A stretch of DNA of 64,000 nucleotides from Gammaproteobacteria bacterium (GCA_030066085.1 JASJCI010000007.1:28363-92362); one strand, 5' to 3'. Counted from the stretch's first letter, positions 13,848 through 64,000 are shown. Translations and numbers: made by a program. Notes: a model not told the origin generated them from the sequence alone.

Positions 13848-15061
<1,214 letters not shown>

Positions 15062-15126
15062 CTAAACAGGGCGCTTGTCAGGCAAATTCTGTTTTTGCCC
15101 CATCGGCGACCAGGGTCCACCCGGAC

Positions 15127-15143
15127 TGCACTTTTCCGGTGCC
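15127..15143. promoter_or_regulatory. possible NtrC box upstream of the P-II gene
   Basis: TGCACTTTTCCGGTGCC versus consensus TGCAC-N7-GTGCA. Confidence 0.35.
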
Positions 15144-15144
15144 G

Positions 15145-39027: not shown

Positions 39028-39747
39028 ATGAACATACTGGTACTGCAACACATCGCGATCGAGGATCCCGGCTACATCAAGGACCTCATGGATGCCGACG
39101 GCTGCCGCCTGACGCAGATCGAGCTCGACGAGGGCGAGCCCATCCCCGAGGACCTGTCCGGTTTCGACGCGATGCTGTGCATGGGCGGCCCGATGGACAC
39201 CTGGATGGAGGACGATTACCCGTGGCTGGTCGAGGAAAAGCGCCGTATCCGCGACTGGGTAGTGCACGAGGAAAAGCCGTTTCTCGGTTTTTGCCTCGGC
39301 TGCCAGCTGCTCGGCGAGGTGGTTGGTGGCCAGGTCGTGCGCTCGGAGCCGTCCGAGATCGGCGTGCTCGACATCCAGATGGCGGCCGCGGCCAGGCAGG
39401 ATCCGCTGTTTGCCGACTACCCGGACAGCCTCAAGGCCGTGCAGTGGCATTCCTACGAGGTAGACGGGCTCGACCTGAACACCGACGTCACGCTGCTGGC
39501 CTCGTCACCGGCCACGCGCTACCAGATTTTCCGCTACCGGCAAAACGCCTGGGGTGTGCAATTCCACGTCGAGGTACGCGAGGATACGGTCAGGCTGTGG
39601 GGCGAGGTGCCGGAGTACAGGTCCGCACTGGAAGCGAGCCTCGGCGGCGACGCGCTCGAGTCTTTCGACCAGCAAGCACGCCGGCACATGACGGACATGA
39701 ATGCCCTGTCGCGCCAGCTCTACGAGAACTTCAGGAAAATATTATAA
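39028..39747 (+). CDS. class I glutamine amidotransferase / gamma-glutamyl hydrolase family (copy 2)
   Basis: MGGPMD, GFCLGCQ, QFHVE. Confidence 0.85.
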   Translation: MNILVLQHIAIEDPGYIKDLMDADGCRLTQIELDEGEPIPEDLSGFDAMLCMGGPMDTWMEDDYPWLVEEKRRIRDWVVHEEKPFLGFCLGCQLLGEVVGGQVVRSEPSEIGVLDIQMAAAARQDPLFADYPDSLKAVQWHSYEVDGLDLNTDVTLLASSPATRYQIFRYRQNAWGVQFHVEVREDTVRLWGEVPEYRSALEASLGGDALESFDQQARRHMTDMNALSRQLYENFRKIL

Positions 39748-40269
39748 GCGCGGCGTAAACGCGAGTACGCGTACCTGGCCCGGCAGCGTCGGGTTGAACA
39801 GGTGGTTGTGCCAGTAGGTCGCTGCGAACAGCGGATCGTCCCGGTCGAGCGACTCGACGTCGAAGTCGAACGCGTGGCCGATGCTCTTTTCGCTGAACTT
39901 GAGATGGCAGGCGCCGGCCTTGAGCAGCGCGTAGGCCACCGAGGAATCGAGGCTGAACAACGCGGTCAGGCGCCGATCGAAGGGCTCGGCATCCTGGTAG
40001 TGACGTTCGGCGAGAATACGTAACCCGTTCTTGATCCACTGCGTCGGATCCTGGGTCTTGCGCACGATGTGGCTGAACTCCGCGGTACGCTCGGCCGGGT
40101 CGCGGTGCAGGATCAGGAAACTGAGCCGGGCCTGCTCGTCGCCGCCGTTGACCGAGTGGATACCCGCGCTCATGCCGGTTGTCGGGCGCCCGCCGAGTTC
40201 GCGCATGCTGTGCTTGCGCAGGCGACACTGCCAGGCGATGAAATCATCGTAGTCTTGTGTGCTAGTCAT
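39742..40269 (-). CDS. hypothetical protein
   Basis: 175-aa ORF with globular-protein composition, downstream of fhs on the same strand. Confidence 0.7.
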   Translation of the reverse strand: MTSTQDYDDFIAWQCRLRKHSMRELGGRPTTGMSAGIHSVNGGDEQARLSFLILHRDPAERTAEFSHIVRKTQDPTQWIKNGLRILAERHYQDAEPFDRRLTALFSLDSSVAYALLKAGACHLKFSEKSIGHAFDFDVESLDRDDPLFAATYWHNHLFNPTLPGQVRVLAFTPRL

Positions 40270-42500: not shown

Positions 42501-43817
42501 TCAGCAGTCGAGCGTGTTCTGGCGTTCCCAGCTGGACAGGTGCGTGGTGTAGCTGTCCCAGGCCTGCATCTTGAGCTTGACGTAGGCATCGACCAGCTCG
42601 TCGCCGAAGCCTTCGCGGATCACCTTGTTCTTGTCGAACTGGCGGATCGCATCGAGCAGGTACAGCGGCAGCTTGCGCGCGCTCTTGGCGCGGTGACCTT
42701 CTTCGTACATGTTCAGGTGCGTCGGTTCGCCCGGATCGCGCTTGTTGGTGATACCGTCGAGCATCGCCATCAGTACGCCCGCCTGCAGCAGGTAGGGATT
42801 GGCGGCGCCGTCCATCAGGCGCAGCTCGAAACGGCCGTCTTCCGGTACGCGGATCATGTGCGTGCGGTTGTTGCCGGCATAGGTCACCGCGTTCGGCGAC
42901 CAGGTTGCGCCCGACATGGTGCGCGGCGCGTTGATACGCTTGTAGCTGTTGACGGTCGGGTTGAAGATCGCCGCGAGGTCACTGGCGGTATGCATGATGC
43001 CGCCCAGCGCCTGGTAGGCCAGTGGCGACAGGCCAAGACCACGCGGATCCTTCTTCGCGGTCGCGAACAGGTTTTTCTTGCCGGCGCGATCCCACAGCGA
43101 AACGTGCGCGTGACAGCCGTTGCCGGTCAGGTGGGTAAACGGCTTGGGCATGAAGGTCGCGCGCAGGCCGTGGTTCTCGGCGATCGACTTGACCATGAAC
43201 TTGAAGAACACGTGCTTGTCGGCGGTGCGCAGCGCGTCGTCGTAATCCCAGTTCATTTCGAACTGGCCGTTGGCGTCCTCGTGATCGTTCTGGTACGGAT
43301 TCCAGCCGAGCTTGATCATCACGTCGCAAATTTCGCTGACCACCGGGTACTGACGCATCAGCGCCTGCTGGTCGTAACAGGGCTTGGCCTGGGTATCGTG
43401 CGTATCAGCGATCGCGGTACCGTCTTGATTGGTCAGGAAATACTCGCATTCGACACCGGTCTTCATGCGGTAGCCCTTCTTCTGTGCCTTGGCCAGCTGA
43501 CGCTTCAATGCGACCCGCGGCGAAGCCTCGACTTCCTTGCCGTCCATCCACAGGTCACCGGCAACCCAGCCGATCTCCGGGTTCCACGGCAGCTGGATCA
43601 GGCTGTCGGGATCGGGAATCGCAAACATATCGGGATGTGCCGGCGTCATGTCGAGCCAGGCGGCGAAGCCGGCGAAACCCGCGCCGTCTTTCTGCATGCC
43701 CTTGATCGCGCGCGTCGGCACCAGCTTGGCGCGCAGCACGCCGAACAGGTCGACCCAGCTGACGAGGAAATACTTGATCTTCTTGGTCTTGGCGATCGCT
43801 TCGAGATCTTTAGCCAC
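42501..43817 (-). CDS. gmaS: gamma-glutamylmethylamide synthetase-like (GlnT-type GS)
   Basis: DLFGVLRAKLVP, GAGFAGFAAWLDMTPAHPD resemble alphaproteobacterial GmaS; GGGAGG RBS before GTG 43817. Confidence 0.8.
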   Translation of the reverse strand: MAKDLEAIAKTKKIKYFLVSWVDLFGVLRAKLVPTRAIKGMQKDGAGFAGFAAWLDMTPAHPDMFAIPDPDSLIQLPWNPEIGWVAGDLWMDGKEVEASPRVALKRQLAKAQKKGYRMKTGVECEYFLTNQDGTAIADTHDTQAKPCYDQQALMRQYPVVSEICDVMIKLGWNPYQNDHEDANGQFEMNWDYDDALRTADKHVFFKFMVKSIAENHGLRATFMPKPFTHLTGNGCHAHVSLWDRAGKKNLFATAKKDPRGLGLSPLAYQALGGIMHTASDLAAIFNPTVNSYKRINAPRTMSGATWSPNAVTYAGNNRTHMIRVPEDGRFELRLMDGAANPYLLQAGVLMAMLDGITNKRDPGEPTHLNMYEEGHRAKSARKLPLYLLDAIRQFDKNKVIREGFGDELVDAYVKLKMQAWDSYTTHLSSWERQNTLDC

Positions 43818-43874
43818 GTGATACCCTCCCAAAGGTTGTTATGGTTGTGCCGCAGGCGGCCATTCTAAGCCAGT

Positions 43875-46394
43875 TCAGTGGCGATTCAAACTGCCCGACA
43901 TCGGCACGCCCGCCGCCTTCGATACCGCGAGCGTAATCGCGCGCAGGTCTTCCGGTTCGAGGTTGTGCACGTTGGTCTTGCCGGTGCAGCGCGCCATCAT
44001 CGCGGCTTCCGCGTTGAAGGCCTGCAGCAGGTTGAAACAGCGCTCCTCGCGTTCGGCCTGGTCGAGGTCGGCATGATATTCGGGGGTACCGCTGGAGACG
44101 TCCGCGCCGAGCGCCAATGCCGCCGCGGCACCGATGACGACCGCGTTGGCGCCGAGCGCGAGCATCTTGGCGCTGTCGGTGCCGGTGCGCAGGCCGCCGA
44201 AGTAAACCAGGTCGATGTCTTCCTCGCGGTTGAGCGCGCGCAGCTGACCGACCGCGTGATTCAGGATCGACAGGTCCGGCGCACCGCCGAGTTCCGCACC
44301 GATTTCAGGCAGGCCGTCGCCGGCATCGAGCACGAGGAAGTCGAGTTCCTGCTCGAGCGCAAACGGGATCGCCTGCGCCAGGTTGCGGTGATTGACGACC
44401 AGGCCAACGGGTTGATCTTCACGCGCGCGCGTCACCTTGCCGGCGAGCATCGCCACGCTGGCGCCGAATGCGACCGCGTCGGCCGCGGCATCCGCCGCAT
44501 CGTCGGCCAGCTGGATCCAGCGCGCGCCGTCACCTGGCGCTCGGCGGCCGAAACAGGCGGCGCCATGGTCGCCAATTGCCTTCGCGTAGGCCGCGCGAAT
44601 CTCGGCGGGCGCATCGTCGAGCCCGGTCACCAGGAACGGGATATCGAGCTTGAGGCTCTCGATCGCGCCGAGATCGGTGCGCGTGACGCAGTCCTCGCGG
44701 TAGGGGTCGATGACCAGCCGCGACAGGTTGGCGGGCAGGAACACGAGGTCGTCGAGCGTGGCCTCGTGATCCTCGCCGAACGGATTGTCTCGGTTGTTCA
44801 ACCGCTCCTGCAGGATACTGGCCTCGATCTCGACCTGGTTGGGCGTGATGCGCGACATCGCGAAAATCGACTCGCGGCTGCCGACCGTGTAGTCGGCCGA
44901 ACCGGTTTCGGCATCGCAGCGGAAACAGCGCGCGGCCTCGAACTTCGCCTCGGCTTCGGTATACGTGGATTCGATCTCGGGGAACTCGACCGGTACCTCG
45001 CCGAGCCCGTGAAACGGCTGTTCCACGCGCGGGTTCAGTTCCCAGGCCGGATCATTGCAGATGGCGACGCGCCGCGTGCGGTAAGGTGTACGGTAGGACA
45101 GCGGGGTTTCGTTGCCTTCGAGGAAGGCTTTCATGTAGTAAGCCGCGCGGTGGCCCTGGTACATCGCCTCGACTATGGTCGAACCGCCGAAGGCGCCGTC
45201 GCCGGCGGCGAACACCCGCGGATCATCGGTGCGCATACCCTCGAGACGGGTGCGTACCCGGTCCCAGTCCATCAGGCCGAGTTCATCGAGTTCGCCGCAT
45301 TCGGCCTTCTGCCCGACCGCGGCGATCACCAGCCCGCATTCGATATCGTGCTCCGAACCCTCGACGTTAATCGGCCGACGGCGGCCGTCTTCGTCGGGCT
45401 CGCCGAGCTCGGTGCGCACGCAGCGCAGCGCGCCGTCGACCACGGCCACCGGCTGCGTGTTGTAAACGATCTCGATGCCCTCCTCGATTGCACCGTGCAG
45501 TTCCTCGCGACGTGCCGGCATGGCTTCGTAGTCACGGCGGTAAACCACCTTGACGTTTTTTACGCCCGGCAGGCGTTTGGCCACGCGACAGGCGTCCATC
45601 GCGACGTCGCCGCCGCCGATGACGAGCACGGTTTCGGGCAGCGTCGGCCGCGCGCCGGCATTGACCTCGTAGAGAAAGCCAACACCGTCGCGCACGAAGG
45701 GTTCGGACTCGTCGGGCACGCCCATGGGTTTACCGACGAAGGCACCGATCGACAGCAGCACCGCGGCGTGTCGCTGTTTCAGTTCATCGAGCGACACGTC
45801 ACGGCCGAGCGCACTGTTCAAATGCACCTTGATCCCGGGGCAGTGCGCCATCATGCGATCGATGTCCTGCTGCACCGCGGATTCCGGCAGGCGGAAGCGC
45901 GGGATACCCCAGTACATCATGCCGCCGAGCTTGTCGGTCGCTTCGTGCAGGTGGACCTCGTAGCCGGCTTCGGCCAGGTCGTGCGCGGCGGTCATTCCCG
46001 CGGGACCTGCACCCACGATAGCAACGGTTTTTTGCTGGCTGACTTCGACTGGCGGCAGCGCGTAACCCGGTCCCAGCGCCTCCAGCACGTAACGCTTCAG
46101 GTTACGAATTGCAATCGCGCCGTCGCTGTCGGCGCGGCGGCAGGCGGGTTCGCAGGGCGCGTCGCAGACGCGACCGCAGATCGCGCTGAACGGGTTGGTC
46201 GCGGTGATCGCTTCGAGCGCTTCCTCGTTCTTGCCTTCCCAGATGTAGGCGATGTAGGACGGCGCATCGGTACCGATCGGACAAGCCACCTGGCACGGCG
46301 CCGGCACGTAATGAATGTCGGCGGTATCGTCCTCGAGGTCCGGCGTGGCCGTGATCGAGAACTGGTAATCGGCGTCGGAAATCTTCATCGTCAA
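43875..46394 (-). CDS. fusion of a GltD-like Fe-S/FAD/NAD(P)H module and a degenerate glutamate-synthase FMN-barrel domain
   Basis: CQVACP..CGRVCDAPCEPAC, GAGPAG, GGGDVAMD, EAARCFRC; C-terminal LDDLVFLPANLSRL...GKTNVHNLEPEDL. Confidence 0.85.
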   Translation of the reverse strand: MTMKISDADYQFSITATPDLEDDTADIHYVPAPCQVACPIGTDAPSYIAYIWEGKNEEALEAITATNPFSAICGRVCDAPCEPACRRADSDGAIAIRNLKRYVLEALGPGYALPPVEVSQQKTVAIVGAGPAGMTAAHDLAEAGYEVHLHEATDKLGGMMYWGIPRFRLPESAVQQDIDRMMAHCPGIKVHLNSALGRDVSLDELKQRHAAVLLSIGAFVGKPMGVPDESEPFVRDGVGFLYEVNAGARPTLPETVLVIGGGDVAMDACRVAKRLPGVKNVKVVYRRDYEAMPARREELHGAIEEGIEIVYNTQPVAVVDGALRCVRTELGEPDEDGRRRPINVEGSEHDIECGLVIAAVGQKAECGELDELGLMDWDRVRTRLEGMRTDDPRVFAAGDGAFGGSTIVEAMYQGHRAAYYMKAFLEGNETPLSYRTPYRTRRVAICNDPAWELNPRVEQPFHGLGEVPVEFPEIESTYTEAEAKFEAARCFRCDAETGSADYTVGSRESIFAMSRITPNQVEIEASILQERLNNRDNPFGEDHEATLDDLVFLPANLSRLVIDPYREDCVTRTDLGAIESLKLDIPFLVTGLDDAPAEIRAAYAKAIGDHGAACFGRRAPGDGARWIQLADDAADAAADAVAFGASVAMLAGKVTRAREDQPVGLVVNHRNLAQAIPFALEQELDFLVLDAGDGLPEIGAELGGAPDLSILNHAVGQLRALNREEDIDLVYFGGLRTGTDSAKMLALGANAVVIGAAAALALGADVSSGTPEYHADLDQAEREERCFNLLQAFNAEAAMMARCTGKTNVHNLEPEDLRAITLAVSKAAGVPMSGSLNRH

Positions 46395-48373
46395 CCCGCC
46401 TTGCGATCGAGCAGTTCGAGACCGGTCAGCGGTCGGTGATCGGTCTTGTGTTCCGGCCGATAGGGCAGGCCGGTGATATCCGCCGCTTCCGGGGTCAGCG
46501 CCACCAGGTCGCCGCGTCCCACCTTGTGCACGTCGTCATGGCCGAGCGCCCTGGTGATCGCGGCGATCTGCCAGCGCAGCGACTCGAAGTAGCGATGCAT
46601 GTTCATCGCCTGCTTGTCGAGATCGTAGCGCGCCTCGTGTTCGGGATCCTGGGTTGCGATGCCGACCGGGCAGGTACCGACGTGGCACTGCATGCAGGCA
46701 ATACAGCCGCCGGCAATAATGGCCGCGGTACCGACCGAGGTGCAGCTGGCGCCGAGCGCAAGCATCTTGACGATATCGACACCGTCCTTGAGTCCGCCCA
46801 TCATCACCAGGTCCATGTCGTCGCCGGCGTCGATCTCGCGCAGGCCGTCGATCGCTTCCTGTACCGCCGCGAGGGTCGGGATACCGACGTTCTCGAGCAC
46901 CTCGGTGCTGGCCGCGCCGGTGGAGCCCTGCAGGCCGTCGAGCTCGACGAAGTCGAAACCGTCCTTGTAGGCGATCTTGATGTCGTCATTGACCCGGCCG
47001 GCGCCCATCTTGATGCCGATCGGCACCTTGTGGAAGGTCGCTTCACGGAATTCCTGCAGCTTGATGACGAGATCGTCCGCGCCGAGCACGTCGGGGTGAC
47101 GCGACGGCGAGCGCAGGTCGATGCCGACCGGGATACCGCGGATCGCGGCCAGTTCCGGTGTAACCTTCTTCGCCATCAGCTGCCCGCCGAGACCCGGCTT
47201 GGCGCCTTGCGAGATGTAGATCTCGATCGCGTCGGCGCGCTGCATGTCCTTGACGTTCCAGCCGAGCCGCCCCGACAGGCACTGGAAGATCAGCTGGTCG
47301 GCTTCGGCGCGCTGCTCGTCGAGCATGCCGCCCTCGCCGGTATTCTCGGAGATGCCGGACAGGCGCGACGCGCGCGCGAGCGCGATCTTGACCTTGCGCG
47401 ACAGCGCGCCGAAGCTCATCGGCGCGATCATGACCGGCATCGACAGGCTGATCGGTTTGGCGCCGAAACGCCCGCCGACCGTGGTCTTCAGGTTGATGTC
47501 CTTCAGCTCCTCGGGATCCGGCGAGATGGTCGAGATGTCCCGCGCGAAGGCAATGTCGTTCAGGTGCGGCACCGGCTTGGACGCGCCGTAGCCACGGATT
47601 CGGTAACGCCCGACTTCACCCTTGATCCAGATATCTTCCTGCACCTTCGGGTTCCAGTAGTTGGACGATTTCGACGACACGAAAAACGGCTGCGGACGAT
47701 GCCGCGGCTCGGCCTTGGCGTAACGCAGTTTTTTGCCGGCATTGACGACCTTGGTGAAGTCGCCATCGAATTTCAGTTCGAAACGGTCGAGAAATTCCCT
47801 GATCTCGTCGCGCTCCTGCGCGTCCATGTCGACGATCATGGTGTCGTTGCCGAGGCTCTCGATCTTGCCGCCGACAAAAATCTCGCCGGCGCTCATGTCC
47901 TGCCCGACCTTGGCCGCGGCGTCACCGAGGATGATGATGCGCCCGCCGTACATCATGTAGCCCGCCATGAACGCGGCATTGCCGCCGCAGCACAGCGTGC
48001 CGGCCTTCATGACCTGGCCGGCGCGGCTGCCCATATTGCCGCGCACGACGATTTCGGCGCCGCGGATGGCAACGCCCGGAATCGCGCCGGCGTTGCCGCC
48101 GACCACCACGGTACCGTTGTAGATGTTGTCTCCAACCGCCCAGCCCGCGTTGTGCTCGATTTCGAAGCGCGCGCCGTCGGACAGACCACCGCAGAAATAA
48201 CCGGCGGACCCGCGCACGCGCACGGTAACGGGGTTGTCGACGACCAGCCCGACACCGATATTGTGGCGCGCATCGGGATTGACGATTTCGATGTCCTGCC
48301 CGTCGGCGGCAAGACTGTGGATTTTTTGATTGGCCGCGGTAATCGCGACCTGGCTTAAATCGATCTGGCCCAT
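46391..48373 (-). CDS. fused GXGXG + FMN-binding glutamate-synthase domains (MgsB-MgsC-like fusion)
   Basis: N-terminal GXGXG repeats; MSFGALS, QGAKPG, C-x5-C-x4-C (CIACMQCHVGTC). Confidence 0.88.
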   Translation of the reverse strand: MGQIDLSQVAITAANQKIHSLAADGQDIEIVNPDARHNIGVGLVVDNPVTVRVRGSAGYFCGGLSDGARFEIEHNAGWAVGDNIYNGTVVVGGNAGAIPGVAIRGAEIVVRGNMGSRAGQVMKAGTLCCGGNAAFMAGYMMYGGRIIILGDAAAKVGQDMSAGEIFVGGKIESLGNDTMIVDMDAQERDEIREFLDRFELKFDGDFTKVVNAGKKLRYAKAEPRHRPQPFFVSSKSSNYWNPKVQEDIWIKGEVGRYRIRGYGASKPVPHLNDIAFARDISTISPDPEELKDINLKTTVGGRFGAKPISLSMPVMIAPMSFGALSRKVKIALARASRLSGISENTGEGGMLDEQRAEADQLIFQCLSGRLGWNVKDMQRADAIEIYISQGAKPGLGGQLMAKKVTPELAAIRGIPVGIDLRSPSRHPDVLGADDLVIKLQEFREATFHKVPIGIKMGAGRVNDDIKIAYKDGFDFVELDGLQGSTGAASTEVLENVGIPTLAAVQEAIDGLREIDAGDDMDLVMMGGLKDGVDIVKMLALGASCTSVGTAAIIAGGCIACMQCHVGTCPVGIATQDPEHEARYDLDKQAMNMHRYFESLRWQIAAITRALGHDDVHKVGRGDLVALTPEAADITGLPYRPEHKTDHRPLTGLELLDRKAG

Positions 48374-49263
48374 GTCTGGTGCGTCCCGGGCGCCGGTTCG
48401 GTGGAATTGATGGATTGCCCCGGGAACAGCCGGTTGAGGCTGACTTCCTCGGAGGCGATGGCGATCATGTCATCGGTTTCGTACAGCACCATCGGCTTGG
48501 CCGCGAGGTTGTCCTTGGCATAACCGATCTCGTCTTTGGTCGAGACCAGGAAAGAAAAGGTGCCGTCGAGATCCTCGATCGCGGTTTCGAGCACGCTGTC
48601 GAGCGTTTCGCCCTGCGACAGCTTGTCGGCGAGGTAGACCGCGACCAGTTCGCTGTCGTTATCGGTATGGAAGCTGTAGCCGCGACGTTCGAGCCGGCGG
48701 CGCATTTTCCAGTAATTGGTGATCTGGCCGTTGTGCACGATCGCGATGTCTTCGAAGCCGGTTGCCCAGAAAGGGTGCGCCGCCTCGGGCCGCACCGCGG
48801 ATTCGGTCGCGAGACGGACATGACCGATGCCGTGGGTGCCGGTGAATTCACCGACGTTGTAGAGGTCATCAAGCTCGTGCGCGGTGCCGTCGTCCTTGAT
48901 GATGTCGAGCGTATGCCCGACCGAAACCAGCTTGGCGTGCTCCTCGATGTCCTTGGTAAACTCGAGCAGGTCACCGTCGAAGCGCACCGCGATCTGGTAG
49001 GAACAACCGACGGACTGTTCGCTCTCGATAGCGGCATCGTGGCGCGCCAGCAGGCTCGCGATGTTGTCGACCGCGTCCTTGCGCGCAGCCTCGTCGGTCG
49101 GCACGATAAAACGCAGCTGCAGCAAATCCCTGGTTTCGCCGTACATCGCGAAGCCGGTGCTGTCGGGGCCGCGATGCTGGCAACCGTCGAGCATTTCGAT
49201 CAGCGTCTTGCCGATTTCATGCGCGCCCTGGGTCTTGAACAGTACGCCTGCAATTCCACACAT
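48355..49263 (-). CDS. class II glutamine amidotransferase (MgsA-like)
   Basis: N-terminal MCGI, HRGPDS, GHVRLATES, HNGQI, DSE. Confidence 0.88.
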   Translation of the reverse strand: MCGIAGVLFKTQGAHEIGKTLIEMLDGCQHRGPDSTGFAMYGETRDLLQLRFIVPTDEAARKDAVDNIASLLARHDAAIESEQSVGCSYQIAVRFDGDLLEFTKDIEEHAKLVSVGHTLDIIKDDGTAHELDDLYNVGEFTGTHGIGHVRLATESAVRPEAAHPFWATGFEDIAIVHNGQITNYWKMRRRLERRGYSFHTDNDSELVAVYLADKLSQGETLDSVLETAIEDLDGTFSFLVSTKDEIGYAKDNLAAKPMVLYETDDMIAIASEEVSLNRLFPGQSINSTEPAPGTHQTWARSI

Positions 49264-55074: not shown

Positions 55075-55581
55075 TCATCCGCCCCCGGGAATTGCCGACA
55101 GCGAGATCGCATCGCCGGCGCTCGCGCGACCGACCCGAAACCGCGCCGAATCCGGGGTCAGCTGGGTTTCGATTTCATCGAAGGCGATCAGGTCGCGACG
55201 AAGTTCGTAGTAGCCCACGACCCTGCCCCGGTGACCGAAAACCAGCGCGGACAGCTGACCCGCTTCGATCAACGACTCGCGTTCCCCGGCGGGCCAGTTC
55301 CAGTCGAGCAGGCATTCGTCGCTGATCGTCCCCGCTTCTACCCTGGCGACGATACGTACCTGGTTCCAGTCGAACTCGAAAAAATCCGCCAGGCGGAAGC
55401 TGTCACCGGTCTCGAGCGAGCGCAGCCGGTCGTGCAGTAGCTGGCGGGTATTGCGGATATCGACACACTTGTCGCGCAGGTCCCAGTAATAGAGTCCCAG
55501 CACGACAACGACGATGACCGGTGCCGCCAGCACCGCCGGCTTCGCCGGTAAAACCGAAAGCGCATCCCTGATCAATGCCAC
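55075..55581 (-). CDS. hypothetical membrane-anchored protein
   Basis: 168 aa; N-terminal TM helix. Confidence 0.6.
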   Translation of the reverse strand: MALIRDALSVLPAKPAVLAAPVIVVVVLGLYYWDLRDKCVDIRNTRQLLHDRLRSLETGDSFRLADFFEFDWNQVRIVARVEAGTISDECLLDWNWPAGERESLIEAGQLSALVFGHRGRVVGYYELRRDLIAFDEIETQLTPDSARFRVGRASAGDAISLSAIPGGG

Positions 55582-55964: not shown

Positions 55965-57383
55965 TCAGGCCGCAGATCCGCGCTCTGCTTCCTCGCGGAT
56001 GGCTTGCGCCACTTCGTCGGCATCCGCCGCACGCGCCGACTCGTAATTGATGTCCAGGCCGACCATTTCGATTTCACGCGGTATACGCAACATGCCCATA
56101 CCGTTCAGGATCTTGGATACGATCCAGGCCGGCACGAAACCGAGCACGAAGAACATGATGATCGCACCGGCGAACTGGCCCCATGGCGATATCGAGGCAT
56201 AACCCTCGAACGGTGACGACGGATAGCCCCATAACATGAAACCGGCGATGACCATGCCGTAAAAACCGGCGTAACCGTGTACGGCGACCGCGCCGACCGC
56301 ATCGTCGATCTTGAAGCGGTTTTCGACCCAGTAGTGCATCTTGTAGGCGATGAACGCACCGCCGCCGCCGATCAGCATGGCCTGGATGGGGTGGTACAGG
56401 TCGTTACCCGAGGATGCGCCGATCACGCCCGCGAGCCCGCCCGAGTAGGTCCAGAACGCATCGCCGTCGGACACCAGGTAAGCCACCATCAGGCCGCCGG
56501 ACAGCGACATCAGGAAGTTGAACGTGATCGCGGACAGCGTGGTGGGCTGCAGGTAGATATTGGTGGCGCTGAAGAAACTCTTGCCCTCGACATCGAGCAT
56601 CGCCGAACCGTAGACGTCGATGACCGGGATGTTACAGGCCACGTAGAATCCCCAGAAGCCGGTGTAGATCAGGAACAGGCCAATGGTGACCAGCCACGGG
56701 TTATGGGGATTGATGTTGCGCGGGGTACCGTCGGCGCGAAACTTGCCGATACGCGGACCCAGCACCAGCAGCACGCCGAGCGCGAAACCGCCCGCAATCG
56801 CGTGGATGACACCGGACGCGTAGGCATCGTGGTAACCGAGCTTCTGCACCATCCAGCCATTCCACGACCAGCCCCAGGACGCGTCGATGATCCAGGTGAA
56901 GGAACCGATTACAACCGCCAGGATCCAGAAAGCGCTCGGCCGGATCCGCTCGATTACCGCGCCCGAGACGATCGACGCCGCGGTCCATGAAAACAGCAGG
57001 AAGGCCGCCCAGAACACGCCGTTGATGCGCGCCCAGTAAGCGGTATCGTCGACCGTCAGCGTATCCTGGTGCACGCCGTTGCCCATGTGCGCACCCATCA
57101 ACTCGCTCCAGGGCGTGGCCCAGGGCGCGTCGACCAGCGGCCCGATGATCCAGGGGCCGTTGACGAAAGCGAAGTAGATCCACCAGCCGAAGAAAAAGAA
57201 GGTAATCGTTACCAGCGGGATCAGCATGGTGTTCTTCATCAGCGTGTGGGTGTGGTTTTTGTAGCGCGAGGCGCCCACCTCGTACATGCAGAAGCCGACG
57301 TGAATCAGGAACATGAACACGACGGTGACCCAGTAATAGAACTCGGTAAAGATGATTCCGAGCGACGTTAACTCATTATCCAT
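55965..57383 (-). CDS. Amt/Mep/Rh-family channel 2
   Basis: SGAVIER, HDAYASGVIH, DDAVGAVAVHG; start ATG 57383. Confidence 0.92.
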   Translation of the reverse strand: MDNELTSLGIIFTEFYYWVTVVFMFLIHVGFCMYEVGASRYKNHTHTLMKNTMLIPLVTITFFFFGWWIYFAFVNGPWIIGPLVDAPWATPWSELMGAHMGNGVHQDTLTVDDTAYWARINGVFWAAFLLFSWTAASIVSGAVIERIRPSAFWILAVVIGSFTWIIDASWGWSWNGWMVQKLGYHDAYASGVIHAIAGGFALGVLLVLGPRIGKFRADGTPRNINPHNPWLVTIGLFLIYTGFWGFYVACNIPVIDVYGSAMLDVEGKSFFSATNIYLQPTTLSAITFNFLMSLSGGLMVAYLVSDGDAFWTYSGGLAGVIGASSGNDLYHPIQAMLIGGGGAFIAYKMHYWVENRFKIDDAVGAVAVHGYAGFYGMVIAGFMLWGYPSSPFEGYASISPWGQFAGAIIMFFVLGFVPAWIVSKILNGMGMLRIPREIEMVGLDINYESARAADADEVAQAIREEAERGSAA

Positions 57384-57551
57384 TCTGACCTCCTCGAATG
57401 GTTTTAACTTGTCGTTGACCGGCGTTGCACCGACCAAGCCCCCATTTGATGCATTTTTTGTTGCTGATCTTCACTCACAAGAAACATATCAATTATGAGT
57501 GAAAATCATGCACCACTTATAACCCAATACCCACAATAATTTCAACGTAAT

Positions 57552-57568: not shown

Positions 57569-57577
57569 AATTTGGGC

Positions 57578-57611
57578 AAAAAAACAGGCTTGCCGGTATC
57601 CCGGTAAGCCT
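57578..57611 (-). terminator. duplicate terminator
   Basis: AGGCTTGCCGG-tatc-CCGGTAAGCCT with A-run; near copy of 57874-57906. Confidence 0.7.
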
Positions 57612-57639
57612 GTTTCACCGGCTTCCGCCACCACCGGTT

Positions 57640-57687
57640 TCAGGTGAACTTTTCGTATATCGCGAGCCAATCGACTCGAGCATCAAA
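57640..57687 (-). pseudogene. remnant 3' end of the 129-aa gene
   Basis: Translates ..RVDWLAIYEKFT* versus ..MVDLRKAYEKFA* of 57935-58324. Confidence 0.55.
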
Positions 57688-57873: not shown

Positions 57874-57906
57874 CAAAAAAAAGGCTTGCCGGTAACCCGG
57901 CAAGCC
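57874..57906 (-). terminator. terminator of the second GS/mgs-like operon
   Basis: AGGCTTGCCGG-taac-CCGGCAAGCCT with A8. Confidence 0.75.
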
Positions 57907-57934
57907 TCGCTGGTTTTGCCTTGCGGCCGTCGGT

Positions 57935-58324
57935 TCAGGCGAACTTTTCGTAGGCCTTGCGCAGGTCGACCATCGGGTGCGATGACGACATCTGGAACTT
58001 GACCAGCAGTTCGCGCGCAATCATGTCGCGGTCCTGCTGGTTGTCCGGCAGCTCGATATCCGGCGGAATCGTCACCCAGCCGTTGATGTTGCGGTCGAAC
58101 ACGGCCGGGCGGCCTTCCTCGTAGCCCATGTGCACGTCTTCGAGCCAGTTCAGGTCCTGCCAGCCCATGACCTCCATGTACTGGCGCAGAAACGGCGTGC
58201 AGCGCTCCATGTCGGGAACCAGGTTTACATCATAGCGATAACCGATGTGCTGACCGATGATTTTTTCGCGCTCGGTATCGACCCCGTCGCCTTCGAGGAA
58301 GTGATTGATGTCTTGTTCAGCCAT
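57935..58324 (-). CDS. hypothetical 129-aa acidic protein, last gene of the operon
   Basis: AAGGAGG RBS; 13 nt from the upstream stop. Confidence 0.8.
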   Translation of the reverse strand: MAEQDINHFLEGDGVDTEREKIIGQHIGYRYDVNLVPDMERCTPFLRQYMEVMGWQDLNWLEDVHMGYEEGRPAVFDRNINGWVTIPPDIELPDNQQDRDMIARELLVKFQMSSSHPMVDLRKAYEKFA

Positions 58325-58337
58325 TGGTCGATCCTCC

Positions 58338-59675
58338 TTAGAAACGGTTCATGTCGGGGCGACCGACGGTGTACTGCGTGCCCGCCATCGGCACCTGCGC
58401 ACAGGCCGAAGCCTCGAGCGTCAGCGCCGCCAGGTCTTCCGGCTCCAGCGAGTGAATGTTGGTCTTGCCGCAGGCGCGAGCGAAGAGCTGTGCCTCGATG
58501 GTCAGCGTGTGCAGGAAGTTGTAGACGCGTTCCGCCGCCTCGTCGGGGTCGAGGCGCTTGCGCAGCTCCGGATCCTGGGTGGCGACACCGACCGGGCAAC
58601 GGCCGGTATGGCAGTGGTAACAGTAGCCGGCTTCGACACCCATTTCCTTCGGAAAATCGGCTTCCGGAATATCCTTGTTGCAGTTCAGCGCCATCATCAC
58701 CGAGTGACCGATGGCCACCGCGTCGGCACCGAGCGCAATCGCCTTGGCCACGTCGGCGCCGTTGCGAATGCCGCCGGCATAAACCAGCGAGATGCGGCCC
58801 GACATGCCGACGTCGTCCAGCGCCTGGCGCGCCTGGCGAATCGCAGCAATACCGGGAACACCGGTATCCTCGGTCGCGAGGTGCGGGCCGGCACCGGTGC
58901 CGCCTTCCATGCCGTCCATGTAAATCGAGTCTGGCCCCGTTTTTGCAGCCATGCGCACGTCATCGTAGACGCGCGCCGCGCCGAGCTTGAGCTGGATTGG
59001 AATCTGGCCGTCGGTGGCTTCGCGGATCTCCTGGATCTTGAGCGCGAGGTCATCCGGCCCCATCCAGTCCGGATGGCGTGCGGGAGAGCGCTGGTCGATA
59101 CCGGCCGGCAGCGAGCGCATCTCGGCGACCTGGTCGGTCACCTTCTGTCCCATCAGGTGTCCGCCGAGACCGACCTTGCAGCCCTGGCCGATGAAAAATT
59201 CGCAGGCATCGGCGAGGCGCAGGTGATTCGGGTTGAAACCGTAGCGCGACTGGATGCACTGGTAGAGCCATTTCGACGAATAGCGGCGCTCGTCAGGGAT
59301 CATGCCGCCCTCGCCCGAGCAGGTCGCGGTACCGGCCATGGTGGCACCGCGCGCGAGCGCGGTCTTGGCTTCGTAGGACAAAGCGCCAAACGACATGCCG
59401 GTGACGTAGACCGGGATATCGAGCTCCAGCGGCCGCTTGGCCTCGGGACCGATGACGGTCTTGGTCAGGCACTTCTCGCGGTAGCCCTCGATGACGAAAC
59501 GCGTCAGCGTGCCAGGCATAAAAGTCAGGTCGTCCCAGGTCGGGATTTTCTTGAACAGCGAAAAACCGCGCATGCGGTAGCGGCCGAGTTCCGACTTGAC
59601 GTGGATATCGTTAATCACCTCCGGCGGGAAGATAAAGCTTTTGCCGAGGTTGTAGCGATCGGATTCGTTAGACAT
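58338..59675 (-). CDS. FMN-binding glutamate-synthase-family protein (MgsC-like)
   Basis: MSFGALS, GQGCKVG, DQRSPARHPDW, CYHCHTGRCP. Confidence 0.9.
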   Translation of the reverse strand: MSNESDRYNLGKSFIFPPEVINDIHVKSELGRYRMRGFSLFKKIPTWDDLTFMPGTLTRFVIEGYREKCLTKTVIGPEAKRPLELDIPVYVTGMSFGALSYEAKTALARGATMAGTATCSGEGGMIPDERRYSSKWLYQCIQSRYGFNPNHLRLADACEFFIGQGCKVGLGGHLMGQKVTDQVAEMRSLPAGIDQRSPARHPDWMGPDDLALKIQEIREATDGQIPIQLKLGAARVYDDVRMAAKTGPDSIYMDGMEGGTGAGPHLATEDTGVPGIAAIRQARQALDDVGMSGRISLVYAGGIRNGADVAKAIALGADAVAIGHSVMMALNCNKDIPEADFPKEMGVEAGYCYHCHTGRCPVGVATQDPELRKRLDPDEAAERVYNFLHTLTIEAQLFARACGKTNIHSLEPEDLAALTLEASACAQVPMAGTQYTVGRPDMNRF

Positions 59676-59703
59676 CTTGTTTCTCCAGTTTTCTCGGCGG
59701 CGC

Positions 59704-60531
59704 TTACAGCACGAGTTTCTTCTCGGTGGGCTCGAGGTTGTCGTAGTTCCACAACTGCTTGCCCGAGGTCAGTTTGACGATCTTGTCGATACCGTTGGGC
59801 GCTTCCATGCCGTACTGATCAAGCTTGGCCTTCAGATAACGCTGGTCGAGATCGGTCAGCTCGGTTTCGACGCAATCGACGCCGAGGCTCGAAATCTTGC
59901 CGGCCACGTAGATGGTACCGTCGTACATCGAGTCGCCGAGGTTATCGCCGGCATCGCCGAGGATGATCATGCGACCGCGCTGCATCATGAAGCCGGTAAA
60001 GGCGCCGACGCTTTCGCCGACGATAATGGTGCCGCCCTTCTGGTCGATGCCGACACGTGCGCCCGCCTGGCCCTTGCACACCAGGTCACCGCCGCGAATC
60101 GCGGCGCCGAACAGCGAGCCCGCGTTCTTTTCGATCACGACCGTGCCGGCCATCATGTTCTCGGCGCAGGACCAGCCGACGCGGCCGGTGATGCGTACGT
60201 TGGGGCCGTCGATCAGACCGCAGCCAAAATAGCCGAGGCTGCCCTCGAAGGTCAGGTTGAGGCGATTGAGAATACCAACGCCCAGCGAATGCTTGGCGCG
60301 CGGGTTTTTCACCGTAATCGAACCGTGACCGGATTGCATCAGCTCGCGAATCTTGACGTTGATTTGCTCGATACTCAGGTCGGCCGCATCAAAGTCGGCG
60401 GCCTTGTCGTAATCAACCTCGTAGGACCACGGGTAAACGAAGTTTTCGTCCTCGGCAGCCGAAAAGAAAACCTGCTGCGTACGGCCCCGGAGCTGCTCTT
60501 CGTGCAGCCCCATGTCATGGGATGTGCTCAC
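59704..60531 (-). CDS. GXGXG-domain protein (MgsB-like)
   Basis: GXGXG beta-helix repeats; GTG start overlaps the upstream TGA. Confidence 0.88.
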   Translation of the reverse strand: MSTSHDMGLHEEQLRGRTQQVFFSAAEDENFVYPWSYEVDYDKAADFDAADLSIEQINVKIRELMQSGHGSITVKNPRAKHSLGVGILNRLNLTFEGSLGYFGCGLIDGPNVRITGRVGWSCAENMMAGTVVIEKNAGSLFGAAIRGGDLVCKGQAGARVGIDQKGGTIIVGESVGAFTGFMMQRGRMIILGDAGDNLGDSMYDGTIYVAGKISSLGVDCVETELTDLDQRYLKAKLDQYGMEAPNGIDKIVKLTSGKQLWNYDNLEPTEKKLVL

Positions 60532-61469
60532 GCTGCCGCCCATACTTTTACCTCCCCTTGGTAAGGATCCCAGGTGTCTATTTCACGCGGGAAAATACTG
60601 CGAATGGCCACTTCTTCCGAAGCCAGGCCGACGAATTCGTCACTCTCGTATAAAACCATCGGTTTCGCCGCCATGACGTCCTTTGCCATGCCGAGCTGGT
60701 CGCTGGTTGCGACCAGGTAAGTAAACACACCGTCCAGCTCGTCGATCGAACGCGTCATCGCGGCCTCGAGGTTGTCGCCGCGATCGATGCGGTCGGCCAC
60801 GTAAACCGCGATCAACTCCGAATCGCAGTTCGACATAAAGCGGTGGCCGCGGCGCTCGAGATCGCGGCGGTTGGTCCAGTAGTTGGTCAGCTGGCCGTTG
60901 TGTACCACCGACACGTCGTTGAACGGGTAAGCCCAGTAGGGATGGGCGCTGCGGATGTCGACATCCGACTCGGTCGCCATGCGGGTGTGGCCGATGGCGT
61001 GGGTGCCGACGAAACCTTCCAGCCCGTACTGCCCGGAGACCACGCTGGCATCGCCCAGGTCCTTGATCAGTTCGAGCCCCTTGCCGACCGACAGGATTTC
61101 GACGCCGTCGATGTCCTCGATGTAGTCGATCAGTCGCTTCAGATCACCGCCGAACTTGAAGTGATAGCGGTAGGCATATTCGGTCGCGTCTTCGCGCGCG
61201 GTGACGTCCGCACCCATTTCCTCCAGGCGCGTATCGACCGCGGCCTTGCGCTCGATAACCTGGCGGTGAATGTCGAAACCGCTCGCCATGTCTTCCTGTT
61301 CGGCGACCTTGAAACGGAGCACGTAGACACCCTCCTCGCCTTTGCCGTACAGGGCGAAACCGGTCGAGTCCGGACCGCGGTGCTTCAGCGCCTGAAGCAT
61401 CTGCGTCATCTCGCTACCGATATCGCTGGTGACGCCGCCTTTCCAGATCAATCCAGCTATACCACACAT
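60528..61469 (-). CDS. class II glutamine amidotransferase (MgsA-like)
   Basis: MCGI, HRGPDS, GHTRMATES, HNGQL, DSE. Confidence 0.88.
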   Translation of the reverse strand: MCGIAGLIWKGGVTSDIGSEMTQMLQALKHRGPDSTGFALYGKGEEGVYVLRFKVAEQEDMASGFDIHRQVIERKAAVDTRLEEMGADVTAREDATEYAYRYHFKFGGDLKRLIDYIEDIDGVEILSVGKGLELIKDLGDASVVSGQYGLEGFVGTHAIGHTRMATESDVDIRSAHPYWAYPFNDVSVVHNGQLTNYWTNRRDLERRGHRFMSNCDSELIAVYVADRIDRGDNLEAAMTRSIDELDGVFTYLVATSDQLGMAKDVMAAKPMVLYESDEFVGLASEEVAIRSIFPREIDTWDPYQGEVKVWAAA

Positions 61470-61574
61470 AAGTATTCCTCGCTGAGGTGTTGCGCGACGC
61501 TCCGGCGGCGCGCGTAATATGAAAAAAGTCCCCGGGCCATCATCACCGACCCGGGAAACAACCCTTGGAGATTC

Positions 61575-63041
61575 CTACGGCAGGCAATCGAGATACATCT
61601 CCAGATCCCACTCGGTAGTGGTGTGCATGAACTTTTCCCACTCGTCGTTCTTGTACCAGTGGAAAATCTTGTACATCTCGTCCGGCATGGCCGACTTGAT
61701 GATCTCGTCGTTGGCCAGGCGATCGAGCGCTTCTCCGAGCGACATCGGCAGCTTCTTGACCTGCTTGCCTTCTTCCATCGCCTGGTAAATGTTGCGATTC
61801 TCCGGCTGGCCCGGGTCGATATCGTTGTCGATACCGTCTTCGAAGGCCTTGAGCAGCGCCGATCCCATCAGGTACGGGTTTACCATCGAGTCGACCGCGC
61901 GGTATTCGAAGCGGCCCGGTGCCGAGATCCGCAGGCCGGTGGTGCGGTTCTGGTAACCCCAGTCGGCAAATACCGGCGCCCAGAAACCCGTATCCCACAG
62001 GCGGCGATAGGAGTTCACCGTGGAACAGCCGATCGCGGTCAGCGCGCCGAGGTGATTGACGATGCCACCGACACACTGCAGGCCGATCTTGCCCGGCATC
62101 TGCGGATCGTCGGTATCGGGCATGAATGTGTTCTCGCCGCCGCTGCGGTAGGTGAACACGTCGTCCATGCCCGGCAGGACTTCGTTGTGCAGCGCGTTGA
62201 CGCTTTCGTCGCCGCCTTTCCACAGCGAGATGTTGGTATGACAGCCCGATGCCGATACACCCATGAACGGCTTGGTCATGAAGCAGGCAATCAGGTTGTT
62301 CTCGCGCGCGACCTGGGCGCAGATCTGGCGGTAGGTCGACAGGCGGTCCGAGTTGCGCACGACATCGTCGAAGGTCCAGTTCAGCTCGAGCTGACCCGGC
62401 GCATCCTCGTGGTCGCCCTGGATCATGTCGAGTCCCATCGCGTGGCAGTACTCGATAACCTGCATGAATACCGGCCGCAGGGATTCGAACTGGTCGATGT
62501 GGTAACAGTAGGGATTCGAGAAGCCGCCGTCCGGCTTGCCGTCCTCGCCGCGCTTGAGCCACATCATCTCGGGCTCGGTGCCGACGCGGAAATCCATGTT
62601 GTACTTGTCCTGGAATTCCTTGTGGAAACGCTTCAGGTTGCCGCGGCAGTCGGAGGTCAGTGCCGCGCCCGGGTTTTCGCGCTCTTCGCGGTTGCGATAG
62701 CAGGTACAGAAAACGCGTGCGACGCGCTTGTCCCAGGGCAGCTGGCAAAAAGTCTCCGGATCGGGGATGCCGACCAGCTCCATGGCTTCCGGACCGTAAC
62801 CGATGTAGTCACCATGACGGTCGATAAACAGGTTTGCGGTCGAGCCGTAAACCAGCTGGAAACCCTTTTCAGCGGTGCGCTCCCAGTGGTCGGCCGGGAT
62901 ACCCTTGCCGACGATGCGGCCCGTCACCGAGATAAACTGGTAATAGATGTACGAAATGCCGAGTTCGTTTATTTTTTCGCGGACCTGCTTGACGAGTTCC
63001 GCGCGCCCTGGTGCTTCTACACATGCTTCTAAGTCGGTCAT
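61575..63041 (-). CDS. glutamine synthetase-family gamma-glutamyl-amine ligase
   Basis: EPE, HEDAPGQLE, NSYRRL, GFWAP, NRT, EYRAVD...NPY. Confidence 0.88.
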   Translation of the reverse strand: MTDLEACVEAPGRAELVKQVREKINELGISYIYYQFISVTGRIVGKGIPADHWERTAEKGFQLVYGSTANLFIDRHGDYIGYGPEAMELVGIPDPETFCQLPWDKRVARVFCTCYRNREERENPGAALTSDCRGNLKRFHKEFQDKYNMDFRVGTEPEMMWLKRGEDGKPDGGFSNPYCYHIDQFESLRPVFMQVIEYCHAMGLDMIQGDHEDAPGQLELNWTFDDVVRNSDRLSTYRQICAQVARENNLIACFMTKPFMGVSASGCHTNISLWKGGDESVNALHNEVLPGMDDVFTYRSGGENTFMPDTDDPQMPGKIGLQCVGGIVNHLGALTAIGCSTVNSYRRLWDTGFWAPVFADWGYQNRTTGLRISAPGRFEYRAVDSMVNPYLMGSALLKAFEDGIDNDIDPGQPENRNIYQAMEEGKQVKKLPMSLGEALDRLANDEIIKSAMPDEMYKIFHWYKNDEWEKFMHTTTEWDLEMYLDCLP

Positions 63042-63561
63042 TGTTTGTCCTCCAGCGGGTTGAGACGCATAGACGGGTCACGCTCCGGATCGTGCCCTGC
63101 TTTTGTTTGTAATGCCTCGACGCCTGATGCCCCTGCGGTCGAGTCGGACAGGCATCAGTCGCCTGTGCGCAGGTCATGGTATACCTATCAACGCCAGTAA
63201 AACAAGACCTCGGCCTGTTTTTTTTAGACAATTCGACTGCTGATAATCATTATTAAGTACCAATTTTCTAAATATTGGTATATTTTTGGCTCAATAATGA
63301 ATACAAGGCTGTTCTCGAAATCATAAATTGAATCGATATGTTTTTATTTATTTATATATTTCAGTACTTTAAGAAATAGCACTATTTTGGTGCGGGTATT
63401 CTCCAGAAGAATTGGGGGCTGGAATATTTTATACCAATAATTCCGAACCCCACCCTTCGAGAGCTGCAAAAGGGAGCATACAGGCTTGATTTCCTCCCTC
63501 GAAAAGCGCATTATTGGACCAATTACAAGTACCATAAAACCACTCCCGGGAGGCGTTCGAT

Positions 63562-64000
63562 TTGGCTAAACCCAGCCCCGGCAATCTTTACGCAATCCCC
63601 GGCCTGGATACGCCGGCGCGGCGCCGCTTGAGCGGAAACCGGGTCGGCGTCACCACCGGCAGCGTCGCCGCGCAGCTGCGCAGGCGCATTCTCGAGGGCG
63701 AGTTCGCCTACGAAGAACGACTGCCCGCCGAGCGCAGCCTGGCCGAAGAATACAGCGTCTCGCGCGGGACCATCCGCTCGGTGCTGCAGATCCTCGAGCA
63801 GCAGCATCTCGTAACCCGGCAAGTGGGCAGCGGAACCTATGTCACCCACCGCACGATTGCCAACCAGCAGGAAATTTCGAGCGTCACCAGCCCGCTCGAG
63901 ATGGTCGAGGTGCGCATCGCGATCGAGCCGCAAATGGTTCGCCTCGCAATTGCCAACGCCAGCGCGCGCGAACTCGACGAACTGCGCGACGCGCTGCAGA
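63562..64000 (+). CDS. GntR/FCD-family regulator (truncated by the window edge)
   Basis: Frame absent from the ORF track: RLPAERSLAEEYSVSRGTIRSVL..QVGSGTYV..EVRIAIEP; GGGAGG before TTG 63562. Confidence 0.85.
   Translation, partial: MAKPSPGNLYAIPGLDTPARRRLSGNRVGVTTGSVAAQLRRRILEGEFAYEERLPAERSLAEEYSVSRGTIRSVLQILEQQHLVTRQVGSGTYVTHRTIANQQEISSVTSPLEMVEVRIAIEPQMVRLAIANASARELDELRDALQ

Follow-up and report, generated by a model that had tools for sequence, protein, structure and literature searches.

A divergent ligase–synthase operon with an orphan 129-residue protein, a candidate dimethylamine pathway of Proteobacteria

Methylated amines are a major marine pool of nitrogen and one-carbon (C1) units, and precursors of climate-active aerosols. 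The enzyme Tdm yields dimethylamine (DMA), for which Dmm is the only known aerobic consuming enzyme, and DmmDABC is missing from many bacteria degrading trimethylamine (TMA) or its N-oxide (TMAO), a gap that has been called a metabolic bottleneck (PMC5520151). The described system closest to the genes reported here consists of the ligase GmaS and the N-methylglutamate synthase MgsABC (Methyloversatilis universalis, Methylocella silvestris, Ruegeria pomeroyi; RhGmaS structure 7CQL). We analysed a window of 64,000 nucleotides, the whole stretch under study, from a gammaproteobacterial genome (GCA_030066085.1 JASJCI010000007.1:28363-92362; G000:C38:28363-92362 in our numbering). It contains two gene sets of this kind. 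Set 2, the subject of this report, encodes a ligase with glutamine synthetase (GS) fold (GS2), an amidotransferase-like subunit (GAT2), a GXGXG subunit (GXG2), a flavin mononucleotide (FMN) barrel subunit (FMN2) and an orphan protein of 129 residues (S129).

The nearest gene of set 1 is 8.7 kb away from the S129 gene. All five open reading frames (ORFs) that the initial annotation placed on the minus strand are present, with amt-2 following the acidic 129-residue gene. Its description of set 1, including a fused protein and a reductase, and of set 2 with separate subunits and no reductase was likewise confirmed. From the comparisons below, this operon is probably, though far from certainly, a self-contained, ATP-driven, gamma-glutamyl-mediated route for DMA, which would replace the O2- and NADPH-dependent DmmDABC and receive its DMA from TMAO (via Tdm) or from Amt import.

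Conservation and distribution of the five-gene unit

A scan of a one-genome-per-species collection gave at least 590 module loci, which come from Gamma- and Alphaproteobacteria and from a contig assigned to an Acidimicrobiia bin. Cultured carriers among the loci are Virgifigura deserti SYSU D60014 (L077) and Arenicellales nBUS_48 (L021). In the 80 loci fetched for comparison, the order GS2-GAT2-GXG2-FMN2-S129 is kept throughout, wherever the contig reaches far enough, and the S129 gene directly follows that of the FMN subunit wherever this flank is present. The assignment of the small gene to the cluster is thereby borne out, and the objection that it might not be conserved with the cluster does not hold. 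Identity to the window's proteins across the loci is 86–97% for FMN2, 76–95% for S129, 70–94% for GS2, 64–96% for GAT2 and 63–90% for GXG2. The five genes are one conserved unit. All of them are covered by metatranscriptome contigs of relatives (85–95% identity), with zero coverage in the flanking intergenic DNA; these contigs demonstrate expression of the family and not operon structure. RNA runs of the window's own organism were looked for and none turned up.

As a marker for the DMA monooxygenase we used PF11927, the HODM PAS-heme alpha subunit, which we treat as equivalent to a Dmm subunit. The window's own genome (96.5% complete) contains tmm, tdm, gmaS and one soxBDAG set; no PF11927 was found in it by profile search, and this negative result is meaningful since the same model detects the family in other genomes. 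Among 50 genomes carrying the module, 45 lack PF11927 and 40 contain Tdm. An even draw of 400 genomes from the same phylum yielded 23 others with Tdm; PF11927 is present in 22 of these, none of which contains S129. The lone PF11927-negative Tdm genome of the draw (G062, the same as G039/L067) has S129 at a distance of 6 kb from tdm. For the tdm-positive genomes the two-by-two table, [[2,39],[22,0]], gives p = 5e-15 in Fisher's exact test, which ignores kinship. Still, Alpha- and Gammaproteobacteria are represented in both classes, and the carriers come from a dozen named families or orders. Among tdm-positive genomes the module and Dmm are nearly mutually exclusive. Because Tdm makes DMA, Dmm is its sole known aerobic consumer and the two systems are complementary, the module is the obvious candidate for the missing DMA step.

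A canonical GmaS orthologue (61–90% identical to GS1, the GmaS of set 1) was found in 44 of the 50 carriers, canonical MgsC in 34 and the fused type in 11. The module and the canonical system thus normally coexist, often within 10 kb (L036, L062, L063, L076).

All ORFs of the 80 loci were clustered, and the clusters were named by Pfam and NCBIfam. A GntR-FCD regulator, divergent from the module, occurs in 44 loci, and a protein of about 190 residues, ‘c9’, usually just after S129, in 43. Within 10 kb, 29 loci contain an Amt and 25 a true Tdm, which is 52–81% identical to the Tdm of the window's genome. Further neighbours are FolD (21 loci), Tmm (13), Fhs (nine) and a TMAO-type OpuAC ATP-binding cassette (ABC) transporter (OpuAC in nine, permease in 12). 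Directly after S129, 15 loci have soxB-(soxD)-soxA-soxG, an mgdABCD-like arrangement. TmoR of R. pomeroyi is said to be a DMA-sensing regulator; when orthology between the GntR protein and TmoR was checked, one of 12 Dmm-type genomes matched at E ≤ 1e-25 (35% identity, 7 kb from the PF11927 match).

In 23 of the 80 loci, a co-directional gene just before GS2 encodes DAO447, a SoxB-like flavin adenine dinucleotide (FAD) oxidoreductase of 447 residues. Orthologues (64–89% identical) are present in 35 of the 50 carrier genomes and in none of 22 Dmm-type tdm-positive genomes. The orthologue of the window's genome (G000:C41:36513-37853; locus L090:8514-9857) is located apart from the island, between genes for GMC oxidoreductases. 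DAO447 matches only the N-terminal half of the DAO domain and resembles the N-terminal halves of SoxB and dimethylglycine oxidase, not PuuB specifically.

The recurrent named neighbours are exclusively C1/folate and methylamine genes. This bears on a reading in which the module gamma-glutamylates some other small amine (for instance ethylamine, ethanolamine, hydroxylamine or one derived from an amide) and in which the link to tdm is incidental. GS-fold ligases are promiscuous, RhGmaS also accepting ethylamine, hydroxylamine and propylamine (PMC7948447), and tdm is missing from ten of the 50 carriers. However, no recurrent genes for two- or three-carbon catabolism (aldehyde dehydrogenases, acetyl-CoA-forming enzymes) were found near the module in the 80 loci, and we regard this reading as improbable. 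DMFase genes did not recur beside the module in four or more of the 80 loci, and a link to DMFase would itself supply DMA. The initial annotation had proposed a parallel gamma-glutamyl/N-alkylglutamate pathway, either for a different amine, with DMA and ethylamine as guesses, or for a different nitrogen regime. The coexistence with GmaS (44 of 50) argues against redundancy with gmaS/mgs, and the linkage to tdm and the near-exclusion of Dmm argue for DMA, whereas the conserved C1 and methylamine neighbours lend no support to ethylamine or a nitrogen regime; substrate and products are what we infer from these patterns.

Subunits of the module

GS2 is 28% identical to GS1. With the TIGR03105 model (type III glutamate-ammonia/glutamate-methylamine ligase; equivalog cut-off 469.6 bits), GS1 scores 651.4 bits and GS2 only 294.6 bits; being below the cut-off, GS2 is not a GmaS equivalog. 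Its best solved relatives are ordinary GS enzymes (1e-58), ahead of GmaS (about 1e-47 to 1e-49). The RhGmaS residues listed in PMC7948447 were mapped through GS1 onto 56 sequences of the GS2 family. Lys30', Glu122, Tyr147, Gln175, Asp177, Glu179, Glu186 and Asn188 are identical in all 56, and the sole invariant change, located beside the amine pocket, is Tyr174 to Ile (56 of 56). GS2 looks catalytically complete and is a putative gamma-glutamyl-(di)methylamide synthetase. RhGmaS itself turns over DMA (kcat 2.6 s-1) with a Km of 16 mM, compared with 27 μM for methylamine (PMC7948447). That a GS-fold enzyme does so indicates that the chemistry is feasible and that a dedicated enzyme would be needed at physiological DMA concentrations.

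The synthase subunits form a group of their own. GAT2, GXG2 and FMN2 are 43%, 37% and 39% identical to their set-1 counterparts. Identity to canonical, separate MgsC is 50–54% for FMN2 and other set-2 proteins and 42–45% for the fused type, compared with at least 70% among canonical proteins of these taxa. The loop QGCKVG(L/M)GGHL is present in 73 of 73 set-2 FMN subunits (QGCKVGLGGHL in the window) and in no other lineage, the corresponding sequences being QGAKPGGGGML in canonical MgsC, QGAKPGLGGQL in the fused type and QGAKPGEGGQL in GltB. The contrast between GQGCKVG and SQGAKPG noted in the initial annotation is exact, as seen in FIGQGCKVGLGGHL of set 2 and YISQGAKPGLGGQL of the fused set-1 protein. 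In the Synechocystis GltS structures, this loop presumably supplies Gln969, Lys972 and Gln978 of the 2-oxoglutarate/FMN site. On this assignment, set 2 would keep the Gln and the Lys and would differ by Ala to Cys, Pro to Val, Glu to Leu or Met, and His in place of Gln978. The FMN domain of GltS can be aligned with FMN2, which retains the FMN barrel and the catalytic Lys and has four cysteines (C332...C352-x2-C355-x4-C360-P) where GltS has three.

A tree of the FMN subunits shows set 2, canonical MgsC and the fused type as distinct, supported groups. The outgroups (GltB, C16, C40) fall on long branches inside the short set-2 clade, so that no conclusion on rooting is drawn. The phylogenetic comparison with MgsABC called for in the initial annotation sets set 2 apart from both other types.

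Set 2 has the architecture of MgsABC, namely an N-terminal nucleophile (Ntn) amidotransferase with Cys1, a GXGXG subunit, an FMN barrel and no reductase; none was found among the Pfam- and NCBIfam-annotated ORFs of the operon. It differs in composition by the extra gene for S129, which is lacking from canonical sets in the same loci, and FMN2 is, by identity and loop, no orthologue of MgsC. In view of the GmaS model, MgsC orthology and subunit composition, the module is not a gmaS/mgsABC duplicate as judged by sequence comparison.

A GS-fold ligase, three glutamate-synthase domains and amt in a row could also be taken for ammonium assimilation by a glutamine synthetase/glutamate synthase (GS/GOGAT)-like system, which would capture ammonia from methylated-amine breakdown or from the adjacent Amt. 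The operon, however, encodes no NAD(P)H- or ferredoxin-dependent reductase partner, and four positions of the GltS loop QGAKPGEGGQ are changed, giving QGCKVGLGGH, so that set 2 does not belong to GltS. Moreover, the genome already has a full GltB (1536 residues, contig C9) as well as several other GS-fold paralogues, and what is conserved around the module is tdm, sox, folD and fhs rather than genes of nitrogen regulation. We consider ammonium assimilation most improbable, the least probable of the alternatives.

Two further variants of the FMN subunit were seen. A third stand-alone type, 55–58% identical to canonical MgsC, occurs in five genomes (G014, G024, G030, G036, G045). A canonical MgsC in one locus (L062:14229-15551) has none of the cysteines of the iron–sulphur (Fe-S) motif (…GYYDDWQDGRDPAGICTQD); they are kept in the canonical MgsC of L036 and in all set-2 proteins. 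Some N-methylglutamate synthases may therefore do without the Fe-S cluster.

More than 8000 database relatives of S129 exist, all of them ‘hypothetical’ or unnamed; the best 120 are 81–98% identical. Searches against Pfam and NCBIfam gave no match even at E ≤ 10, and nothing significant was found by profile search of PDB sequences or by Foldseek search of PDB folds with the AlphaFold2 (AF2) model. When 1.84 billion cluster representatives were searched exhaustively with phmmer, remote relatives and genuine fusions were absent; the search revealed one tight family, in which the matched stretches are at least 52% identical and mostly fragments. Apparent fusions (e.g. P0227) were rejected as frameshifted read-throughs of FMN2 and S129. 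Also rejected were a relic of a GltB domain (hhalign against the genome's own GltB gave a probability of 0.3% for the central domain) and a small subunit of DMFase (DmfA1, PDB 6LVB, was not matched by PDB profile search or Foldseek). No relationship to ‘c9’ was detected by hhalign.

S129 is under strong purifying selection. In an alignment of 34 sequences (Gamma- and Alphaproteobacteria and the Acidimicrobiia-binned contig), 66 of the 129 positions are invariant, including His26, His65 and His116, and the ratio of non-synonymous to synonymous substitution rates (dN/dS) versus relatives is 0.015–0.06, with synonymous sites near saturation. The AF2 model is of medium confidence (pLDDT 68, pTM 0.62) and has a core of helix-helix, three-strand sheet and helix-helix. 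In the monomer, AF2 fails to place precisely the stretch with the highest invariance, R19-D38 (REKxIGQHIGYRYDVNLVPD). Since invariance combined with such a lack of placement is typical of an arm folding onto a partner, we propose that this arm docks. Most simply, S129 is proposed to be a structural fifth subunit of a synthase-like complex. The dedicated small subunit suggested earlier is thus supported by its conservation in the cluster, with the subunit role as our proposal.

Layout of the operon and the surrounding island

The coordinates of the operon and of other features of the window are listed in the table.

Table. Features of set 2, set 1 and their surroundings, in positions of the window.
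Feature	Position	Strand	Basis or remark
GS2, glutamine-synthetase-fold ligase, 488 aa, first operon gene	61575..63041	-	Gln-synt_C 3e-79
GAT2, class-II (Ntn) amidotransferase-like subunit, 313 aa, N-terminal Cys (MCGIAG)	60528..61469	-	GATase_6/7 ~1.6e-14
GXG2, GXGXG beta-helix subunit, 279 aa	59704..60543	-	PF01493 1.5e-16
FMN2, glutamate-synthase-type FMN barrel subunit, 445 aa	58338..59675	-	PF01645 (Glu_synthase) 5e-92
S129, orphan acidic protein, 129 aa, 15.2 kDa, isoelectric point 4.6	57935..58324	-	ORF and conservation
Intrinsic terminator closing the operon, 12-bp stem, T7 tail	57881..57908	-	terminator scan
Terminator-like hairpin, 11 pairs and T-run, in the 105-nt GS2-GAT2 gap	61529..61557	-	consensus scan only
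Divergent intergenic control region, GS2 versus GntR-tdm unit	63042..63561	.	position only
GntR-FCD regulator, 248 aa, extends past the window end	63562..64000	+	GntR and FCD domains
Amt2, Amt-family channel downstream of the operon	55965..57437	-	PF00909 2.8e-55
Set 1 GATase	48355-49263		
Set 1 GXGXG-FMN fusion	46391-48373		
Set 1 GltD-like reductase	43875-46394		
Set 1 GmaS (GS1)	42501-43832		
S129 3'-end remnant and terminator	57575-57657		
168-aa ORF after amt-2	55075-55581	-	no Pfam match
175-aa ORF just downstream of fhs	39742-40269	-	no Pfam or NCBIfam match
GS-fold paralogue	466-1806	+	tblastn

The GAT2 and GXG2 genes overlap by 16 nt, and S129 starts 13 nt past the FMN2 stop, with a GGAGG ribosome-binding site ahead. 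The hairpin between GS2 and GAT2 may be an internal attenuator setting the ratio of ligase to synthase. Two weak sigma-70-like matches are located on the plus strand of the divergent control region. Just beyond the window end the GntR gene is completed and is followed by canonical tdm (G000:C38:92681-95044), encoding a Tdm of 788 residues with the domains DUF1989, GCV_T and GCV_T_C. The order of the whole island is fhs-gmaS-mgs (set 1)-helix-turn-helix (HTH)-cupin, then tmm, folD, amt1 and amt2, then S129-FMN2-GXG2-GAT2-GS2, and finally gntR-tdm. Amt2 is a probable channel for alkylamine or ammonium uptake.

Between the operon terminator and amt-2 there is a scar of a small mobile element. The S129 3'-end remnant, together with a terminator, flanks a small element with terminal inverted repeats (TIR). 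One other locus (L001) contains two copies of S129 (8945-9331 and 15037-15423; 95% and 88% identical to that of the window), about 5.7 kb apart, with ABC-ATPase genes between them. Insertions may preferentially hit the region of the S129 terminator.

Relatives of the 168-residue ORF (‘c29’, about 41% identical) are found behind amt in ten loci. The 175-residue ORF is a member of the family ‘c9’, relatives of which adjoin the S129 module or follow canonical gmaS in 43 of the 80 loci; the window's member is 42% identical to that of L014. Going by these positions, ‘c9’ is another uncharacterised recurrent member of methylamine islands. At least six GS-fold paralogues besides GS1 and GS2 were detected by tblastn, one in the window and the others on contigs C44, C33, C17 (two) and C7.

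The proposed dimethylamine route and its relation to known systems

In the proposed route, GS2 would ligate DMA, and possibly methylamine too, to glutamate, giving gamma-glutamyl-dimethylamide. The Cys1 amidase of GAT2 would then free the amine inside a GAT2-GXG2-FMN2-S129 complex, in which S129 would serve as a structural fifth subunit, docking on its partner with the invariant, intrinsically unstructured N-terminal arm. In route (a), FMN2 would move the amine onto a glutamate/2-oxoglutarate skeleton, as N-methylglutamate synthase does, to form N,N-dimethylglutamate; this is redox-neutral, so no reductase would be needed. In route (b), FMN2 would dehydrogenate DMA to methylamine and formaldehyde with the cofactor pair FMN and Fe-S, like DMA and TMA dehydrogenases, and the methylamine would feed canonical GmaS. 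SoxB-like flavoenzymes (DAO447 and/or SoxBDAG/mgd) would pass the methyl groups into the folate pool. Either route would agree with the coexistence with GmaS seen in 44 of the 50 carriers.

Several observations weigh against DMA as the substrate, which we infer solely from gene distribution and neighbourhood. Apart from the carriers without tdm, two carriers (G008, G040; the only two of the 50) combine the module with both Tdm and PF11927. Three families dominate the Dmm-positive set, many of the carriers are metagenome-assembled genomes of unknown completeness, and the comparison is without phylogenetic correction. We know of no precedent for iminium chemistry with a secondary amine on a glutamate-synthase scaffold, and no electron acceptor is encoded in the operon for the dehydrogenase variant. 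The amine pocket of GS2 is almost identical to that of GmaS, so that methylamine could be the substrate. In one complete genome (G032), tdm, the module and sox genes occur with neither canonical GmaS nor any other Mgs; three more (G029, G033, G044) combine set 2 and GmaS with no canonical Mgs. Such genomes fit a general methylamine role equally well. Under the DMA reading, G032 favours route (a), or a module handling both DMA and methylamine.

The retained methylamine pocket, these four genomes and the soxBDAG/mgd-type genes directly behind the module in 15 loci would agree with a second N-methylglutamate-type pathway for monomethylamine, made up of high-affinity or differently regulated isoenzymes. 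Dmm-less bacteria would then excrete DMA, as has reportedly been proposed for SAR11. However, canonical GmaS is kept in 44 of the 50 carriers, often within the same 20 kb, and the near-perfect complementarity to Dmm among tdm-positive genomes would be unexpected. The module pairs with tdm and GntR and not with gmaS, and the invariant remodelling of the loop at the FMN site, together with the extra subunit, argues for a different reaction. We therefore consider methylamine isoenzymes unlikely, although they are the most serious alternative to a DMA route.

In the literature we found no publication on the module, on gamma-glutamyl-dimethylamide, on N,N-dimethylglutamate or on an alternative DMA pathway. 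We give an even chance to the wider proposal that the module represents a previously unrecognised, oxygen-independent DMA pathway with a five-subunit, glutamate-synthase-derived complex including a subunit of new fold, and that it replaces Dmm in hundreds of species from marine sediments, sponge symbioses and soil. If this is true, the ‘DMA bottleneck’ of the marine methylated-amine cycle would be closed in the carrier lineages. The inference of DMA turnover from metagenomes would change as well, since the genes in question now go under the names ‘glutamine synthetase’, ‘glutamate synthase’ and ‘hypothetical’; the available marker genes would be extended by S129 and the QGCKVG signature, both of them highly specific. 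As no oxygenase would be needed, DMA catabolism could also be expected in symbionts and in sediments low in oxygen. The glutamate-synthase family of enzymes would gain from the module an obligatory subunit new to it, together with an active site that has been remodelled.

DmmDABC/HODM (Lidbury et al., 2017, PMC5520151; PDB 5LTH) would occupy the same place in the pathway, and both systems are found in TMA/TMAO islands. The likeness is functional only; there is no relationship in sequence or fold, and the module is no member of DmmDABC. Dmm, a heme/FMN/Fe-S oxygenase in which GcvT-like and reductase subunits accompany the PAS-heme alpha subunit, depends on O2 and NADPH, and a dmmA mutant of R. 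pomeroyi reportedly accumulates DMA, whereas the module combines an ATP-grasp-like ligase with glutamate-synthase parts and would not need O2. The pathways of PuuA/PuuB for putrescine in E. coli and of IpuC for isopropylamine share ATP-dependent gamma-glutamylation followed by flavin oxidation, and DAO447 before GS2 is reminiscent of this order. However, these pathways rely on PuuD, an amidohydrolase of class I, and have no complex resembling glutamate synthase.

Glutamate synthase (GltB/GltD; 1EA0, 2VDC, 7MFM, 1OFD) has homologous amidotransferase, FMN barrel and GXGXG domains, and FMN2 keeps the C-x4-C-P part of its Fe-S motif. In contrast to GltS, the module distributes these domains over three proteins, lacks the central domain and has neither GltD nor ferredoxin as a partner. 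The closest likeness is that to GmaS and MgsABC, with the same four domain types in the same order, location in the same methylated-amine gene islands and lack of a reductase subunit, in keeping with a redox-neutral exchange of amines. The differences are that GS2 is not nearer to GmaS than it is to true GS and that the set-2 synthase subunits are 37–53% identical to canonical or fused ones. S129 represents a protein family without known relatives, in a module that would work in a GmaS/MgsABC-like manner.

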